DNA of 37,187 bases from Dehalococcoidia bacterium (lineage in GTDB: Bacteria; Chloroflexota; Dehalococcoidia; GIF9; UBA5629): assembly GCA_007280145.1 (NCBI GenBank), contig QYPU01000111.1:1-37187 (forward strand), given 5' to 3'. The first letter of the stretch is position 1. Every line of letters begins with the position of its first letter. A model generated the notes under the pieces. It was not told the DNA's origin. It did no database searches and saw only the letters and a list, made by a program, of their open reading frames with translations. This document shows positions 782-7,207 of this stretch, piece after piece. A program made the translations under genes and the position numbers.

Positions 782-1399
782 ATGCAAATGAACTGGACAG
801 GTGCCTACATGATAGGATGGACAAACTTCATCGTACTGATTGTCTCGGCTTTGCTCTTCCTGTATTTCTATGTGAAGAGTGTAAGCCCTGCTGCATTAGA
901 AAAGAAGACCGGCGAACTTGCCTACACCAGGTGTACACGCTATAGACTGATAGCCTCTGCTTTTGAAGTAGTTGCCATTGTTAATTACATAGTCTATTTC
1001 TTCTACCCCCTACCTATTTCACTACCTCAGACTTTCCCATGGACTTGGTGGATTTCAATTGTCATAGCGATTGCAATAGCAATCCCTGGTGGTTACCTGA
1101 TGTGGATAGGTATGAAAGACGCAGGTAAAGAAACTATGGCTACGAAGAAGAACCATACGCTCTATGGGGGCATCTACCAGAAGATAAGGCATCCGCAGGC
1201 AACAGGCGAGGTTACTTTGTGGTGGGTGGGCGCATTCATCTTGAACTCCCCGCTCCTTGCAATATTCTCATTCATCTGGATACCAATCTTCTACATATTT
1301 TGCTGGGCAGAAGAGAAAGACCTCGTCCTCCGCTATGGCGAGCCCTTTTTAGATTACAAAAGGAACACTGGCTTTCTAATACCGAAGCGTAACTGGTGA
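782..1399 (+). CDS. Isoprenylcysteine carboxyl / phospholipid methyltransferase family membrane protein
   Basis: 205-aa polytopic ORF. The C-terminal signature is GGIYQKIRHPQATGEV ... AEEKDLVLRYGEPFLDYKRNTGFLIP (RHPxY-type ICMT/PEMT motif followed by EE..L...G..Y..Y). Confidence 0.7.
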   Translation: MQMNWTGAYMIGWTNFIVLIVSALLFLYFYVKSVSPAALEKKTGELAYTRCTRYRLIASAFEVVAIVNYIVYFFYPLPISLPQTFPWTWWISIVIAIAIAIPGGYLMWIGMKDAGKETMATKKNHTLYGGIYQKIRHPQATGEVTLWWVGAFILNSPLLAIFSFIWIPIFYIFCWAEEKDLVLRYGEPFLDYKRNTGFLIPKRNW

Positions 1400-1413: not shown

Positions 1414-2631
1414 TTAGCTAAGAAGGTCTAGCTTTTCCACCCTGCCGTCCTTATCGATATGCTCAATAACAATAGGGAAACCCTTCTTGCCACCTACGCT
1501 TACCTTGGTCTGGGCGAGTTCAACCACATCCATGGGATTAACGCAGCCCTCAGGCGGACAGACTCCCTTTTCTTTAATCTTCCCCATAGCCATGAGTATT
1601 GCACCGAGTGCCGCTGGAACACCTGTGCCTTCACCCATTCCCTGTCCTCTCGAAGACATCGAGAAAATATAGGTGCTCTTCTCGCCGTTCTTAAATCCTT
1701 TTACCACTATTTTCAGGCAACCCATAGGTTGGTTAAGCCCGGCCGCTTTTGTCAATCTGTCCCTCTGAGAGAGTATAAAGGCTACCGCAAATTCCAGGGG
1801 GATGACCTTATGACCCTGGACTTCAATCGGTTCCTCGCCTGTGATACCCAACCTCACCACTCCTTTTATCAGCTCTGCATAAGCAGGCGGCAGTACAAGT
1901 CCCATGTTGGTTACTCTTTTCACGCCTTTTAAGTACTTTGGTAGAGTTATCGTTTCTGGATGCGGATAGGCATATACATTGTACGTCCCTACGTCCCGGA
2001 ACTCAGTCTCCTCTTCCAAAGCCTTCCCGCTATCCTCAAAGAGCCTCACCGTTGTAAACTTGCCGTCAAGGAACATCGGCACATCCGCTTCCATGGAGTG
2101 TATTCTATGCTTTACTACAGCCGGTCCTTCCTCTGCTTCACCACCATGAGCATGGTATATGTCGACTGCCTCAACCTGGTCGAGTAAAGAATCAGCGCAA
2201 AATCTCACCAGTACATTCGCAACTCCAGGAGAGCTTCCCATCCCAATCAATGCCGAAATACCTGCCCTTTTTGCATCTTCATCCATGCCGAGAAGCTTCT
2301 CAGTGGCATCGAAATCATCGCAAACATCAACATAGTTAATTTTGGATTCTATCACTGCCTTCATTATGATGGGGCCAAACTTGTAGAAGGGCCCGACACA
2401 GTTTAGAACAACCGACGAGCCGGCAATGACCTTTTTAATACTCTCAGGATTCTCTGCATCAAATTCAACAGCCGAGATGCTATTTCCCCCCAATGCCTTA
2501 ACTAGCTTTCCTGCCTTTTCAATATTAATGTCAGCAACTGTGATTTCGGAGAATACCCCACTTGAAGCAAGTGTTCCCGTAGCTACGCTTCCAACTGCTC
2601 CACACCCGCCCAAAACTGTAACTTTTGACAT
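1414..2631 (-). CDS. Saccharopine dehydrogenase family NAD(P)-dependent oxidoreductase
   Basis: 405 aa. The N-terminal Rossmann motif is VTVLGGCGAVGS. Length and layout are typical of Sacchrp_dh N- and C-domains. It starts 17 nt downstream of the RLP stop. Confidence 0.8.
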   Translation of the reverse strand: MSKVTVLGGCGAVGSVATGTLASSGVFSEITVADINIEKAGKLVKALGGNSISAVEFDAENPESIKKVIAGSSVVLNCVGPFYKFGPIIMKAVIESKINYVDVCDDFDATEKLLGMDEDAKRAGISALIGMGSSPGVANVLVRFCADSLLDQVEAVDIYHAHGGEAEEGPAVVKHRIHSMEADVPMFLDGKFTTVRLFEDSGKALEEETEFRDVGTYNVYAYPHPETITLPKYLKGVKRVTNMGLVLPPAYAELIKGVVRLGITGEEPIEVQGHKVIPLEFAVAFILSQRDRLTKAAGLNQPMGCLKIVVKGFKNGEKSTYIFSMSSRGQGMGEGTGVPAALGAILMAMGKIKEKGVCPPEGCVNPMDVVELAQTKVSVGGKKGFPIVIEHIDKDGRVEKLDLLS

Positions 2632-2648
2632 TTTCCCCTCCTTTCCAA

Positions 2649-3956
2649 CTAGAACCCAAAGCTGGCAAATGGGTCAACCCATTCCTTAAGCGCAGTTGCC
2701 AGCTCCGGATGTTCTTTGGCATATTCCTCAAGAGAAATGCCCTGCATCGTTGCATCGATTGCCTGACGGAATGCTTTCCCCCCAGCGACTGGACCCTGAG
2801 GATGAGCATGGATGCCTCCACCCGAACCTATTACGATATCAGTGCCTAGGTCTCCCATCGCTTTCGGCACCATAGATGGCGTAATTCCACCGGATGCCAT
2901 GGGGAAACTTGGTTTCAGATGGTATAGGGGGAACGTCAGATTCTTGGCGACATTCTGGAATTTATCAGCTATCACAGGAGCTTTTCCGTATGGGGCAGGG
3001 ATGACAACAACATCAGCCCCGGCAAGGCGAGGTAATTTGCCCAACACAAGATGAGAGCTCAAGCCATGAAGAGGCGACATATACATAGCCCCAGCCACAT
3101 CCATGTGGGCAAGGATAGGAACATTTATATTCGGGTCTTCTGTCAGCGCCTGCATTATAGGTAATCCAACGGCGATGTAGTTTATCATCAGCGCATTGCA
3201 CCCCAACTCAACTGCACGCTTCGCATTTTCAAAAACCTTTGGCACTTTGTCCGTTATATTAACCGTGTACAGGGTATGTTCACCTGTCTCTTCGTAAACT
3301 TCCTTCTCGAGTTCCATGTAGCGTTTGACACGTCCTTGGACAGAATTGAATGAGGCATCGGCGATTAATTCATCATCCTTAATAATGTCACAACCACCCA
3401 TTGCCGCTTTCCTGAACAATTCAGCCCCAACCTCCAGAGGATAACCCGTGCACGGCTTTATCATGTTATTGAGGAGAGGTCGCTTGGGAATTCCCAGAAG
3501 CTCTCTCACACCAGCGATGCCAAACTTCGGTCCCTTAAAACCGGCGACATATTTCTCAGGGAATCGCATGTCCAGCACCTTGATGTTCCCGCCCATAGAT
3601 ATGTTACCCACCAATGCTGTTAACAGCATTGGTATTTGCTCACCTATATTAACCTCCGGGAAAGCTATCTGGATAATCCAATTCCTGGTCTCTACCGAGC
3701 GGGGCACACCAAACTCAAAATCTGGTATCTCATACACGCCCATGACCTTAGCAACATGCTGACAGCGCACCTCAGAAGTCTCACCTGGAACTGCTACCCA
3801 TGTACCCGTACTCTGCTCAATGGCCAGTGCCAGAGATAGCTTGGGAATGGGGATTTCTGCCGGGAAAGAAGCTAAGTAAGTAGCAACAAGATATTCAGCG
3901 TAATCCACTCCGTCTGGCAAGACTAAAGGCAAACCCAAAATTTCCTCTGTATTCAT
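2649..3956 (-). CDS. RuBisCO large-subunit-like protein (form IV RLP, probably not a carboxylase)
   Basis: 435 aa. RuBisCO large-chain blocks were aligned by eye: RPLLNNMIKPCTG (vs RPLLGCTIKPKLG), GGCDIIKDDE (carbamylated-Lys block GGLDFTKDDE), ILAHMDVAGAM (vs LHIHRAMHA), RLAGADVVVIPAPYGK (vs RLSGGDHIHSGTVVGK), PMASGGI and GSGGGIHAHPQGPVAGGKAFRQA. K177, R295 and H327 equivalents appear substituted (C, M, V). Confidence 0.85.
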   Translation of the reverse strand: MNTEEILGLPLVLPDGVDYAEYLVATYLASFPAEIPIPKLSLALAIEQSTGTWVAVPGETSEVRCQHVAKVMGVYEIPDFEFGVPRSVETRNWIIQIAFPEVNIGEQIPMLLTALVGNISMGGNIKVLDMRFPEKYVAGFKGPKFGIAGVRELLGIPKRPLLNNMIKPCTGYPLEVGAELFRKAAMGGCDIIKDDELIADASFNSVQGRVKRYMELEKEVYEETGEHTLYTVNITDKVPKVFENAKRAVELGCNALMINYIAVGLPIMQALTEDPNINVPILAHMDVAGAMYMSPLHGLSSHLVLGKLPRLAGADVVVIPAPYGKAPVIADKFQNVAKNLTFPLYHLKPSFPMASGGITPSMVPKAMGDLGTDIVIGSGGGIHAHPQGPVAGGKAFRQAIDATMQGISLEEYAKEHPELATALKEWVDPFASFGF

Positions 3957-3969
3957 TTAGACACCTCCT

Positions 3970-5511
3970 TCATAAATTTGCCTCATCAAATCTCTTTTTA
4001 TTAAGCTTACTATAAAACCCCCGCAGGTTGCTATAGACTTCCTGGTACGAATGAAACAGAGAATCGTAGATCTCACAGTTCTTCTCCTGCGGTTCAAAAG
4101 TCTCCTCTATCTTCACCACCTTTTTTAGAGACTCGAAATCCGGGTATATGCCAAGACCAACTGCTGCTATCAACGCAGCGCCGACAGCACCTGCATCCTG
4201 AGGAGCACACACAGCCTCAACATTCCTATGAGTCACATCTGCCAAAATCTGCATCCAGGGTTTGCCCTTTGCCCCCCCACCTATAACTCTAAGACGTGGG
4301 AGGGGAAATTTAAATTCTTTTTCCACGATTTCCACAATCCATCTAATGTTATAAGCCACTCCTTCATAGACAGCACGCAGCAAATTCTCACGAGTATGGT
4401 TAGCGCTTAAGTTAATGAAACTGGAGCGAACATAACAATCATCTATGGGAGCCCTCTCTCCATACATCCATGGAGTAAAGATTAAGTAATCAGAGCCTGG
4501 TGGAATCTGGTCAACCATCTCATCCATAAGGGCATAAACATTAGGAATGTTTGGGTCACTTTTTTCGGACTTGTAGAACTCATCAGCAATCCATCGGAGG
4601 CAAGCTCCAGCAGTTTCCGTTTCAGCAAACAGAAATGCTTTATCGGGGTCTGCTGAATGGATAGTCGCTGCCCCGCATTTACCTTTTGGCATACGGCTTG
4701 TGACAACGCCTACCCAGCCAGATATTCCAAAATAGACATGACCTTCACCTTCACCAACTGCTCCAGCCCCGACGGCAGCAGAAGGAGCATCTCCAGCGCC
4801 TGCCATAACGGGTGTGCCTTCCAAAAGCCCGCATTCATTAGCCGCTTCTCTTGATAGTGTCCCAACTTTGTCAATGGACCGTACTAAAGGCGGGAACTTC
4901 TCAGGGTCAAGCCCGACATAACGAAAGATGCCTTTAAGCCACGTCTTCTTCTTAAGGTCAAGCCCGAAGACAGAAGCGCCTGTCCACTCCATAACCATAT
5001 TTCCAGTCCCACGATAAATAAGGTAACCGTCGACATCGAGAAAACAGCACATCTTGTTGTAAATGTCAGGCTCCTCCTCTTTAAGCCACAGTAATTTCGG
5101 AATACCATCCTTCCCACCCAAAGGGGCACCAGCAATGAGGGCAAAAACACGAGAGTTAATAAATTTTCTCATCAGGCGACTTGCCTGTTTGCCAGCCCTG
5201 TTGTCAAGCCAGATTATTGCAGGTCTAAGTGGACCTTTCCCCGAATCCATCGGTACAATGCCAAGCATCTGTGTGCTACAGGTAAGACATACCACATCGC
5301 TTGGTGGCACGCCTGTCTTTTCCAGAAGAAGTCTTGTAGTCTGCGTCACTGCCCTCCACCAATCCTCAGGGTCTTGCTCCGCCCAGCCAGGATTTGGATA
5401 ATGAGTCTCGTAAGCCTGAGAGCAGCTACCATGCACACGCCCCTCAATATCTATCAAAACTGCCTTGTCGCTGCTTGTACCCACGTCATGAGCAACTATA
5501 TACTTGTCCAT
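3970..5511 (-). CDS. FGGY-family carbohydrate kinase (xylulokinase/ribulokinase-like; substrate unknown)
   Basis: 513 aa. The N-terminal actin-fold phosphate-1 motif is IVAHDVGTSSDKAVLID. Length and the C-terminal GGGAKGKPWMQILADV block are typical of FGGY kinases. It ends 13 nt upstream of the RLP start. Confidence 0.85.
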   Translation of the reverse strand: MDKYIVAHDVGTSSDKAVLIDIEGRVHGSCSQAYETHYPNPGWAEQDPEDWWRAVTQTTRLLLEKTGVPPSDVVCLTCSTQMLGIVPMDSGKGPLRPAIIWLDNRAGKQASRLMRKFINSRVFALIAGAPLGGKDGIPKLLWLKEEEPDIYNKMCCFLDVDGYLIYRGTGNMVMEWTGASVFGLDLKKKTWLKGIFRYVGLDPEKFPPLVRSIDKVGTLSREAANECGLLEGTPVMAGAGDAPSAAVGAGAVGEGEGHVYFGISGWVGVVTSRMPKGKCGAATIHSADPDKAFLFAETETAGACLRWIADEFYKSEKSDPNIPNVYALMDEMVDQIPPGSDYLIFTPWMYGERAPIDDCYVRSSFINLSANHTRENLLRAVYEGVAYNIRWIVEIVEKEFKFPLPRLRVIGGGAKGKPWMQILADVTHRNVEAVCAPQDAGAVGAALIAAVGLGIYPDFESLKKVVKIEETFEPQEKNCEIYDSLFHSYQEVYSNLRGFYSKLNKKRFDEANL

Positions 5512-5602
5512 TTGACTACACCTTGAATAACACAGCGGAACTTATTATACCACTTCCTCCAAGTAGGATTGCTGATGCGAGAAAAAAGATTCGACTAATT
5601 CT

Positions 5603-7207
5603 TTACAAGAAATAAAGGTATGCCGTGAATGCTGCCGTAATAACCATGAGCACCAAACATATCGTCAAAAGTATATGGTATTGTTTATTAATCTTTTTTA
5701 ATTCATCTCCGGTTGCCCTAAGCGGTGCTCTCAATTCAGTCCATTCTTCCTCAGGTATGGTTTCATCATCATCCACCTTCATTACCTTCTCTTTGAATTC
5801 CTCAATAGAGGCAGGAATGTCCATCTTCTTTCTGGCCACGAAGTAAATGATTACCGCAATCACTATAAACAGTAGCCCCAAGACTGCTGAGATTATCTCA
5901 CCCATAGTCTGAGAAACTCCCATTTCTAGCGCAACCTGTGTGCCAATATAGTACGTCAGACCAACGGGGAGGGCAGCACTAAAGACTATTGCCAGGATTG
6001 GAACGGCGATGTGTATTTTAAAGGGGCGTTCGATGTTGGGCTTTCGAATTTTAAGCATGATAATAGACAGCATTAACACAATGTATATCACAGCTGACAT
6101 TGCGCACGCTCCGGCGCCAAGTATCATAACCAAATTCGGGGCGATAACAGCGCAGAATAATATGGCCACAAATATTAATGCATTACCCGGCGTCTTAAAT
6201 TTAGGACTTAAGTTGCCAAACCATTTTGGTAGTGCTCCTTCCTTTGCAGTAGCATAAAGTGTCCTTCCAGTCTCACTCAAATTTGCGTTAAGTGTAGGCG
6301 GATGCATACCAATGGCAGCAGAAAGAGCGATAATCATAATAGCTAAACCGCCAGCACCTGCATACCTAGTCGCAGCAGCAATAGGTGCTGCGGTAGGAGC
6401 ACCTAGCACTTCAGCGGGCGCCAAGCCTATAGCTATGCCAAGCACCCATGCATTCACAAGAAATATAAGCAAGGCTGAAATGATAAACGCTTTTGGCATT
6501 ATGGTTAAAGGATATTTAGTCTCGCCAGCCAATGTACCTCCTAATTCTGTCCCCACAAACGCCCAGTAAGCTAGTCCCAGTGCCGCTAGAAACAGTAAAG
6601 GCGTTAATCCCTCACTAAAGAATGGCTGCTTATATAATTCCATTTGAGTGTGAGGGATTGCTAATACCCCCCAAATAATTAATCCAACTAACATAAAGAT
6701 AAGTAAATAAAACTGCGTTCTGGCGAAAATCTTTACCCCAATGTAGTTTATGCCACATACAACAAGTATCAACAAGCAGGCTATTAAGGCATCTGGTAAA
6801 ACGGCCAATGACGGTATCAAATATTTGACATAGTACGCAAACGCAAGAGCTTCTGTTCCTCCGCTGCCTAGAATCAAGGCAACCATCGGTATCAACACAA
6901 TCACCAGAAAAAAGTTTGCCGTTTTAGGAGGAAAGCCATACCGTATGCTGTAAATGGGGCCACCTGAAAAGGGGAATATAGTAGCTATCTCCGCCATACT
7001 CATTACCAAAGCCAAAGATATACCAAGGGCAATAAATAAGATGAGCAAAATGCTGGGGCCGGCAATTGATGCAGCCATTGGACCAAAAACCACCAATCCA
7101 CAGCCTATGGTGAGTCCAGTATTAATTAAGACAAGCTCGATAAATCCTATTTTCCTTACAGGTTGAACCGATGGGGCATGTTCTCCAGCCGATTTAGAAT
7201 TAGCCAC
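5603..7207 (-). CDS. APC-superfamily (amino acid/polyamine/organocation) permease with a C-terminal extension
   Basis: 534 aa, about 12 hydrophobic helices. These are followed by an acidic linker (DDDETIPEEEW) and one extra terminal helix. GTG start at 7207 is preceded by GAGGAGG. Confidence 0.8.
   Translation of the reverse strand: MANSKSAGEHAPSVQPVRKIGFIELVLINTGLTIGCGLVVFGPMAASIAGPSILLILFIALGISLALVMSMAEIATIFPFSGGPIYSIRYGFPPKTANFFLVIVLIPMVALILGSGGTEALAFAYYVKYLIPSLAVLPDALIACLLILVVCGINYIGVKIFARTQFYLLIFMLVGLIIWGVLAIPHTQMELYKQPFFSEGLTPLLFLAALGLAYWAFVGTELGGTLAGETKYPLTIMPKAFIISALLIFLVNAWVLGIAIGLAPAEVLGAPTAAPIAAATRYAGAGGLAIMIIALSAAIGMHPPTLNANLSETGRTLYATAKEGALPKWFGNLSPKFKTPGNALIFVAILFCAVIAPNLVMILGAGACAMSAVIYIVLMLSIIMLKIRKPNIERPFKIHIAVPILAIVFSAALPVGLTYYIGTQVALEMGVSQTMGEIISAVLGLLFIVIAVIIYFVARKKMDIPASIEEFKEKVMKVDDDETIPEEEWTELRAPLRATGDELKKINKQYHILLTICLVLMVITAAFTAYLYFL

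Follow-up and report, generated by a model that had tools for sequence, protein, structure and literature searches.

Each function assigned to a RuBisCO-like protein (RLP) has brought to light a reaction new to the RuBisCO scaffold, namely that of an enolase, a 1,3-isomerase, a decarboxylase or an oxygenase. Among the closest described systems is MtnW (YkrW), the 2,3-diketo-5-methylthiopentyl-1-phosphate (DK-MTP-1-P) enolase of methionine salvage, with chains from Geobacillus kaustophilus (2oek) and Bacillus subtilis (2zvi) and with MtnK, MtnA, MtnB and MtnX as partners. Another is the RLP of the DeepYkr clade, known from Rhodospirillum rubrum and Rhodopseudomonas palustris and encoded next to a cupin methylsulfurylase. 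The Rhodospirillum RLP acting as 5-methylthioribulose-1-phosphate 1,3-isomerase enolises and reprotonates a ketose-1-phosphate with a non-polar tail (PMC5893883). Here we describe an RLP from a Dehalococcoidia bacterium, encoded on a contig of 37,187 nucleotides (QYPU01000111.1, assembly GCA_007280145.1) which is referred to as the window. Its partners are instead an FGGY-family kinase and an enzyme of amine chemistry, and this kinase-RLP-amine-enzyme module recurs across uncultured anaerobes.

The RLP gene (positions 2649..3956, minus strand) encodes 435 amino acids (aa) with the Pfam domains RuBisCO_large (PF00016, 157 bits) and RuBisCO_large_N (PF02788, 31.5 bits). It is located 13 nt downstream of the gene for an FGGY-family carbohydrate kinase (3970..5511, minus strand; 513 aa; FGGY_N 183.5 bits, FGGY_C 94.4 bits) and 17 nt upstream of that for a saccharopine-dehydrogenase-family C-N oxidoreductase (1414..2631, minus strand; 405 aa; Sacchrp_dh_NADP and Sacchrp_dh_C), hereafter the dehydrogenase. 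A gene for an APC-family amino acid/polyamine-type permease (5603..7207, minus strand; 534 aa, GTG start; AA_permease_2 and AA_permease) precedes the kinase gene at a distance of 91 nt. All four open reading frames (ORFs) are intact, and their coordinates agree with the tight packing on the minus strand noted in the original prediction. Scans for promoters and terminators returned no more sites than in shuffled sequence, and a search of Rfam, which covered the window and seven orthologous loci, found no riboswitch or leader RNA near the operon; the four genes are therefore taken as an operon solely because of their strand and spacing. The window comes from a metagenome-assembled genome of 1.23 Mb with an estimated completeness of 68%, and close homologues carry Dehalococcoidia names.

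Relatives of the RLP were sought in one genome per species. Of the 169 obtained, the best 80 loci, all at least 70% identical, were kept. ORFs in these loci were called and clustered, yielding 78 RLP instances (raw numbers, in which a few contigs appear twice). The loci stem from Dehalococcoidia, Anaerolineae, Thermoflexia, Caldiserica/Cryosericum, Acidobacteria and Binatia, and an Armatimonadota chromosome carries a further RLP copy at 83% identity, with AFOR and Aldolase_II inserted at the locus. RLP orthologues occur in at least six phyla. No conclusion drawn here depends on the unpublished genomes G227 and G272. An FGGY kinase is encoded immediately upstream of the RLP and on the same strand in 63 of the 78 instances, and within five genes in 69 of them. 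Because the pair recurs in 63 of these 78 related loci, its arrangement is not due to chance. In a sample of 401 Chloroflexota genomes, RLP orthologues were present in seven and kinase orthologues in exactly the same seven. These data show that the FGGY kinase is a near-obligate partner of the RLP and that the two form a conserved core. Regarding recurrence of the four-gene neighbourhood as originally delineated, the pair of kinase and RLP recurs, whereas the permease does not (see below).

With 333 bits against a cut-off of 380, XylB is the best NCBIfam match of the kinase; no equivalog cut-off is reached, and xylulokinase, gluconokinase and LsrK, its relatives in the Protein Data Bank (PDB), all score near E 1e-50. 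FGGY paralogues at 35–42% identity occur in ordinary transporter-kinase contexts and were uninformative. A Zn-ADH separates the kinase from the RLP in one orthologous locus, and a second such locus has a GNAT inserted. Loci from Thermoflexales/Anaerolineae encode, between kinase and RLP, a protein of 300–400 aa without Pfam match (L124:9081-10004, overlapping both neighbours by 4 nt; also L122, L125, L118, L119, L113 and L117), which may be a further member of the module. An apparent kinase-RLP fusion of 1020 aa in L126 was rejected; it contains RuBisCO domains only and its long frame is an artefact of ORF calling. A second RLP copy of genome G078 (L035, G078:C6, 7649-9001) lacks the adjoining kinase and is found next to genes for a PfkB kinase, an MFS_2 transporter, a TetR regulator and a protein in which a nucleoside hydrolase is joined to an HMG-CoA_red_N-like domain. 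On a single 21.6 kb contig (L037/L085/L086; G316:C21, DAOTVU010000021), the kinase-RLP-dehydrogenase module is present twice, in inverted orientation and with identical match scores, which may reflect a genuine duplication or may have arisen in the assembly.

The classical RuBisCO residues were mapped onto the RLP by motif and with an alignment of 104 sequences; RuBisCO numbering is used here, with the residues of the RLP in brackets. Retained are E60 (E47), T65/W66, N123 (N118), K175 (K167), H294 (H284) and K334 of loop 6 (K325), together with the metal/carbamate site K201/D203/E204 (K193, D195, E196; motif KDDE at 193–196) and the glycine loops of P1, the first phosphate site (378–381 and 392–393). 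Replaced are T173 (M165), K177 (C169), R295 (M285), H298 (A288) and H327 (V318), resulting in the signature E60 T65 W66 N123 M173 K175 C177 K201 D203 E204 H294 M295 A298 V327 K334. The by-eye alignment of the original prediction, which had seen the carbamylated-lysine block and the phosphate-binding glycines kept and the equivalents of K177, R295 and H327 substituted, is thereby borne out and extended by the changes at H298 and T173. Of the 20 positions mapped, 17 do not vary among 73 distinct orthologues (70–91% identity), covering the catalytic, the metal-site and the replaced residues except H298. The H298 position (A/S/T), S379 (S/A/V) and G404 (G/A) vary conservatively.

In RuBisCO, the carbamate, the metal, K175 and H294 perform enolisation, and R295, H298 and H327 bind the second phosphate. 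Since the former set is kept in the RLP and the latter lost, we read it as a probable enolising enzyme for a monophosphate with a non-polar distal end. The five polar-to-non-polar changes at the second-phosphate site favour a substrate with a non-polar tail over a polyhydroxylated sugar or sugar acid. The RLP shares K175, carbamylated K201, D203, E204, H294, K334, E60, N123 and the P1 glycine loops with RuBisCO forms II/III, but it lacks their K177 as well as R295, H298 and H327 of the second phosphate site (P2), and it should therefore not bind ribulose bisphosphate.

Comparison with curated families supports the assignment, made from the residues, to form IV, within an uncharacterised clade that would be incapable of CO2 fixation. 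The RLP remains below the cut-offs of both NCBIfam models for MtnW (NF007095, 385 vs 409; TIGR03332, 343.5 vs 513.6), of rubisco_III (TIGR03326, 264 vs 497), of the RuBisCO large-subunit model NF003252 (240 vs 438) and of OiaX, which stands for RLPs of the D-apiose pathway (NF042437, 191.8 vs 700). The intact set of carboxylase residues was not found. The earlier view of a form IV RLP that is no carboxylase is thus upheld, and the curated cut-offs exclude it from the equivalogs of MtnW, OiaX and form III. In a tree of 98 rows, the RLP falls into a group of 19 rows that sits at an unresolved fork beside the MtnW clade, and the RuBisCOs with full signature are on the far side of the same tree.

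The best PDB match of the RLP is 2oek, the DK-MTP-1-P enolase of Geobacillus kaustophilus (E 5e-88), and the Bacillus enzyme is also among the closest solved structures. Around 400 residues are alignable with MtnW, which has the Mg2+/carbamate site, the single phosphate site and a non-polar distal pocket in common with the RLP; these features point to a monophosphate that can be enolised and has a non-polar tail. The MtnW clade, however, carries Lys at the N123 position (Lys98 in the Geobacillus enzyme, which we take to be the catalytic base), where the clade described here has Asn (N118), and it has lost E60 and K334, both kept in the RLP. True members of the MtnW clade, P0150 and P0152, used as controls, pass the MtnW cut-offs and do carry Lys at this position. 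DeepYkr is a plausible mechanistic analogue of the RLP in the window, although the cupin adjacent to the former is replaced by kinase and amine enzyme in the latter; no cupin gene was found among the annotated neighbours of the module loci. The R. palustris chain 3qfw, a possible RLP1, matches the RLP only at 2e-27.

The third gene of the module comes in two versions. A saccharopine-dehydrogenase-like gene accompanies 35 of the 78 RLP instances and a class-III aminotransferase 21, and the two are never found together. Deduplication left 67 rows, comprising 29 with the dehydrogenase, 19 with the aminotransferase, 9 with neither and 10 too short for scoring. The two states have switched at least twice on the RLP tree. 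Dehydrogenase orthologues are present in five of the seven RLP-containing genomes of the Chloroflexota sample. In five near-complete genomes, the complementarity extends genome-wide: the dehydrogenase-type genomes G364 and G087 gave no aminotransferase match at E <= 1e-30, a third one (G105) has only a paralogue of 39% identity, and G141 (98% complete) combines the kinase-RLP pair with an 84% identical aminotransferase elsewhere in the genome and has no homologue of the dehydrogenase. A short contig of G141 carries an RLP C-terminus and an aminotransferase N-terminus, the continuation being the end of contig C28 (L133; with C42 and C16). This is probably a second RLP of that genome, followed by the aminotransferase, a Liv ABC importer and Aldolase_II, and split by the assembly.

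The aminotransferase is HemL-like (NF000818, 294 bits vs cut-off 398; PDB 4e77 at 2e-66). The dehydrogenase scores 63.5 against a cut-off of 800 with the NCBIfam model of carboxynorspermidine synthase. Foldseek searches with its predicted model (pLDDT 85.8) returned the carboxyspermidine dehydrogenases 8deb and 8h4z as best hits (TM 0.75–0.80, 22% identity), followed by the L-lysine dehydrogenase 3abi (TM 0.67–0.77). The window dehydrogenase thus has the fold of carboxyspermidine dehydrogenase and L-lysine 6-dehydrogenase, but at an identity of only 20–22%. It contains the GxGxxG motif and an invariant Asp34 after beta-2 of the Rossmann fold, which hints at the use of NAD rather than NADPH and hence at an oxidative, catabolic direction. 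To our knowledge, every member of the saccharopine dehydrogenase family interconverts a carbonyl and a C-N bond. L-lysine 6-dehydrogenase and L-lysine epsilon-aminotransferase are known analogues for a single amine-to-carbonyl step carried out by either type of enzyme. On this family property and this precedent, the dehydrogenase and the aminotransferase can be read as alternative enzymes for one amine/carbonyl step.

Sister clades, whose RLP representatives are 46–49% identical and have nearly the same signature, show related arrangements. The RLP P0124 is accompanied by a Liv-type ABC importer, an FGGY kinase, Aldolase_II, an Rrf2 regulator and Aminotran_3, and P0127 by GntR, Fe-ADH, Zn-ADH, an FGGY kinase and a sugar-type ABC system. 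P0122 lies inside a GlpA/B/C-like set, and P0123 together with D-serine-dehydratase-like genes, RpiB, Dak1/2 and TIM. What these arrangements share is an enzyme that forms a carbonyl (alcohol dehydrogenase or amine enzyme), accompanied by a kinase and the RLP and in some cases by a class II aldolase. This resembles FucK/FucA-type and polyol routes, in which an FGGY kinase makes a ketose phosphate; Aldolase_II occurs at the Armatimonadota, G141 and P0124 loci, and alcohol dehydrogenases at the P0127 and L080 loci. Unlike in the FucK/FucA type, the RLP is inserted between kinase and aldolase, and the aldolase is usually not nearby. Aldolase_II was rejected as a regular neighbour, as just 4 of about 85 loci have it at a distance of up to 10 kb. 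No paper on the kinase-RLP-amine-enzyme combination turned up in full-text searches, with the reservation that subscription journals are poorly covered and absence is unproven. To this extent the neighbourhood matches no characterised RLP pathway found in the literature, as had been predicted.

On balance, we favour the view that FGGY kinase, RLP and amine enzyme form a conserved three-step module which acts on a small phosphorylatable compound with an amino group and a non-polar tail. According to this model, the amine enzyme would turn a C-NH2 beside a primary alcohol into C=O, a step to which the alcohol dehydrogenases of the sister clusters would be equivalent on C-OH. The kinase would phosphorylate the adjacent primary hydroxyl, giving a 1-phospho-2-keto-3-hydroxy motif that resembles the upper half of ribulose bisphosphate; these two steps may come in either order. 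The RLP would then abstract the C3 proton via carbamylated K193 and Mg2+ and reprotonate the enediolate, leading to isomerisation by a shift of the carbonyl or to epimerisation. Outcomes of this kind are also seen in side reactions of RuBisCO itself. The Rhodospirillum RLP is a further example (PMC5893883). A class II aldolase may cleave the product in some lineages. Candidate substrates are 2-amino-1,3-diols, amino-polyols and deoxy-ketoses. The imported polyol, sugar acid or amine-linked sugar of the original prediction can be narrowed: because the dehydrogenase is one of two alternating amine enzymes, an amine-linked substrate is favoured, and the non-polar changes in the RLP argue against a polyhydroxylated sugar or sugar acid.

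The direction of the module is probably catabolic or salvage. Many loci are flanked by transporters and regulators (MFS, Liv ABC, TetR, GntR, Rrf2). At least five loci encode an MFS protein of the anion:cation symporter type after the dehydrogenase, six have a different MFS protein ahead of the aminotransferase, and in G141 the aminotransferase, a Liv-type ABC importer and Aldolase_II are encoded on one strand. Genes for solute-binding proteins of the Peripla_BP_6 type adjoin the module at L133:8893-10146 and L140:2777-4105. With such varied transporters beside the module in other lineages, import of the substrate is plausible.

Several points weigh against this three-step scheme. Neither amine enzyme is present within five genes in 9 of the 57 scorable loci, and Aldolase_II, as mentioned above, is scarce. 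Those relatives of the dehydrogenase whose structures are solved work on aldehydes or on amines at a primary carbon and are mostly biosynthetic, which is a poor fit to a conversion of 2-amino to 2-keto. We know of no FGGY kinase acting on amino alcohols, and the order of the steps cannot be read from the gene order.

A more specific version of the three-step scheme, which we consider possible but put forward only tentatively, is an undescribed, oxygen-independent route in which the RLP would perform a new reaction, i.e. 3-epimerisation, carbonyl shift or phosphate elimination, on a 1-phospho-2-keto-3-hydroxy compound originating from a deaminated substrate of the 2-amino-1,3-diol type, such as a short amino-polyol. 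If true, the RLP superclade marked by 'E60 N123 K175 C177 K334' would represent a general family of 'kinase-coupled enolisers' acting on amino as well as polyol substrates in anaerobes among both bacteria and archaea.

The same genes could also work in the reverse direction, as a biosynthetic module. Phosphorylation of a ketose and its rearrangement by the RLP would then be followed by amination of the resulting carbonyl to an amino-polyol phosphate (such as a lipid head group or a piece of a cofactor). We regard this as unlikely. It would be in keeping with the nearest solved relatives of the dehydrogenase, which are reductive aminases of polyamine synthesis, and with the strong conservation of the RLP noted above. 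PEMT-like methyltransferase, PlsY, GT2 and nucleotidyltransferase genes are located near the operon in the window, PlsY is also found near type-B (aminotransferase) loci, and an ICMT-like gene (L044:9470-10366) follows an archaeal-type RLP of 60% identity. The lipid genes are, however, no conserved neighbours, and many loci are bordered by transporters of importer type and by regulators of the TetR, GntR or Rrf2 families. The distribution is patchy (the 7 of 401 genomes of the phylum sample), and the invariant Asp34, by the rules for Rossmann folds, suggests NAD rather than NADPH.

A further scheme, improbable in our view, is the salvage of 5-deoxy- or 5-methylthio-pentuloses from by-products of S-adenosylmethionine. 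Here, the kinase would form the 1-phosphate and the RLP, as a 1,3-isomerase, would yield 1-deoxy-D-xylulose 5-phosphate (DXP) or a precursor of it, thereby standing in for the absent Dxs. The Rhodospirillum 1,3-isomerase (PMC5893883) provides a precedent, the distal pocket of the RLP is non-polar, radical SAM genes adjoin some loci, and the second RLP of G078 stands beside the nucleoside hydrolase and PfkB kinase already described. Four near-complete genomes of the family (G105, G364, G141 and G078) possess Dxr and have neither a mevalonate-pathway (HMG-CoA) reductase nor a Dxs over the cut-off, only split transketolase-like genes being found.

The co-occurrence of RLP and Dxs was analysed in a sample of 121 genomes of the order, including two families, f1 and f2, with 57 genomes each. 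In f1, all 36 RLP-containing genomes are without Dxs and all 9 Dxs-containing genomes are without RLP (both, 0; neither, 12). This anticorrelation follows genus lines and so reflects few independent events, and in the sister family f2 it is not seen: 6 of the 10 RLP-containing genomes also have Dxs and 4 do not, 26 have Dxs only and 21 neither. In addition, G406, G482 and G186 (94–99% complete) have Dxr and neither Dxs nor RLP, the amine enzymes would be without a role, and the kinase would be unnecessary given the presence of MtnA. A function of the RLP as general Dxs substitute is consequently not supported, on account of the overlap in f2 and of the Dxr-containing genomes with neither Dxs nor RLP. 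Dxs is missing in 76 of the 121 genomes of the order sample. An alternative route to the riboflavin precursor was also considered and dropped, RibB being present in all five relatives.

That the RLP is a variant DK-MTP-1-P enolase of methionine salvage (MtnW) is very improbable. It is true that its best NCBIfam and PDB matches are MtnW, that JGI labels several of its homologues DK-MTP-1-P enolase, and that an MtnA homologue scores over the cut-off in the genome of the window and in four relatives. Against this stand the scores below both MtnW cut-offs, Asn in place of the clade's Lys and the retention of E60 and K334, as well as the position outside the MtnW clade in the tree. Moreover, MtnK was not found in five genomes, where MtnA is present and unlinked, and no salvage genes (MtnK, MtnA, MtnB) adjoin the RLP, a search for MtnX not having been made. 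The last step of classical methionine salvage requires O2, and the lineages concerned are anaerobes.

Finally, the reading of the RLP as a genuine form III RuBisCO that fixes CO2 has virtually no chance of being correct, since its RuBisCO_large domains and retained residues (E60, N123, K175, K201, D203, E204, H294, K334) are outweighed by the replacement of K177, R295 and H327 by C, M and V in 73 of 73 orthologues and of H298 by A/S/T, by the low rubisco_III score and by the distance to the full-signature RuBisCOs in the tree.

Of the four genes in the operon, that for the APC permease does not belong to the preferred module of kinase, RLP and amine enzyme. In about 85 loci, no second member of its family was found, and the protein reaches no NCBIfam cut-off; its orthologues P0275, P0290 and P0298 (71–77% identical) are located upstream of genes for Hydantoinase_A, Hydantoinase_B and Acetone_carb_G. 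The permease is a lineage-specific neighbour and not a conserved module member, and its inclusion in the pathway by the original prediction is abandoned. In this window it may nevertheless import the substrate, as its adjacency suggests. Loci with permease orthologues (L128, L130, L131, L132) have a PNP_UDP_1 phosphorylase upstream and an IF-2B (MtnA-like) gene downstream, and the cluster of permease and hydantoinase-like genes may be a unit for uptake and ATP-dependent ring opening or carboxylation. On the other side of the operon, a PEMT/isoprenylcysteine-methyltransferase-like membrane methyltransferase (782-1399, plus strand) is encoded convergently to the dehydrogenase gene; it does not recur in the 80 orthologous loci.

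The clade of the RLP is a large one. Database searches with the RLP returned 2860 matches at E <= 1e-20, a number that spans the whole RuBisCO/RLP family and not this clade alone. Members of the clade are routinely mislabelled as methionine-salvage enolase or as RuBisCO, which distorts calls of carbon fixation and sulfur salvage in Chloroflexota metagenomes. The function can be tested directly, as the kinase partner is fixed, the amine enzymes alternate and solute-binding proteins are encoded alongside. Once assigned, it would show which amine-bearing compounds are scavenged by subsurface anaerobes.

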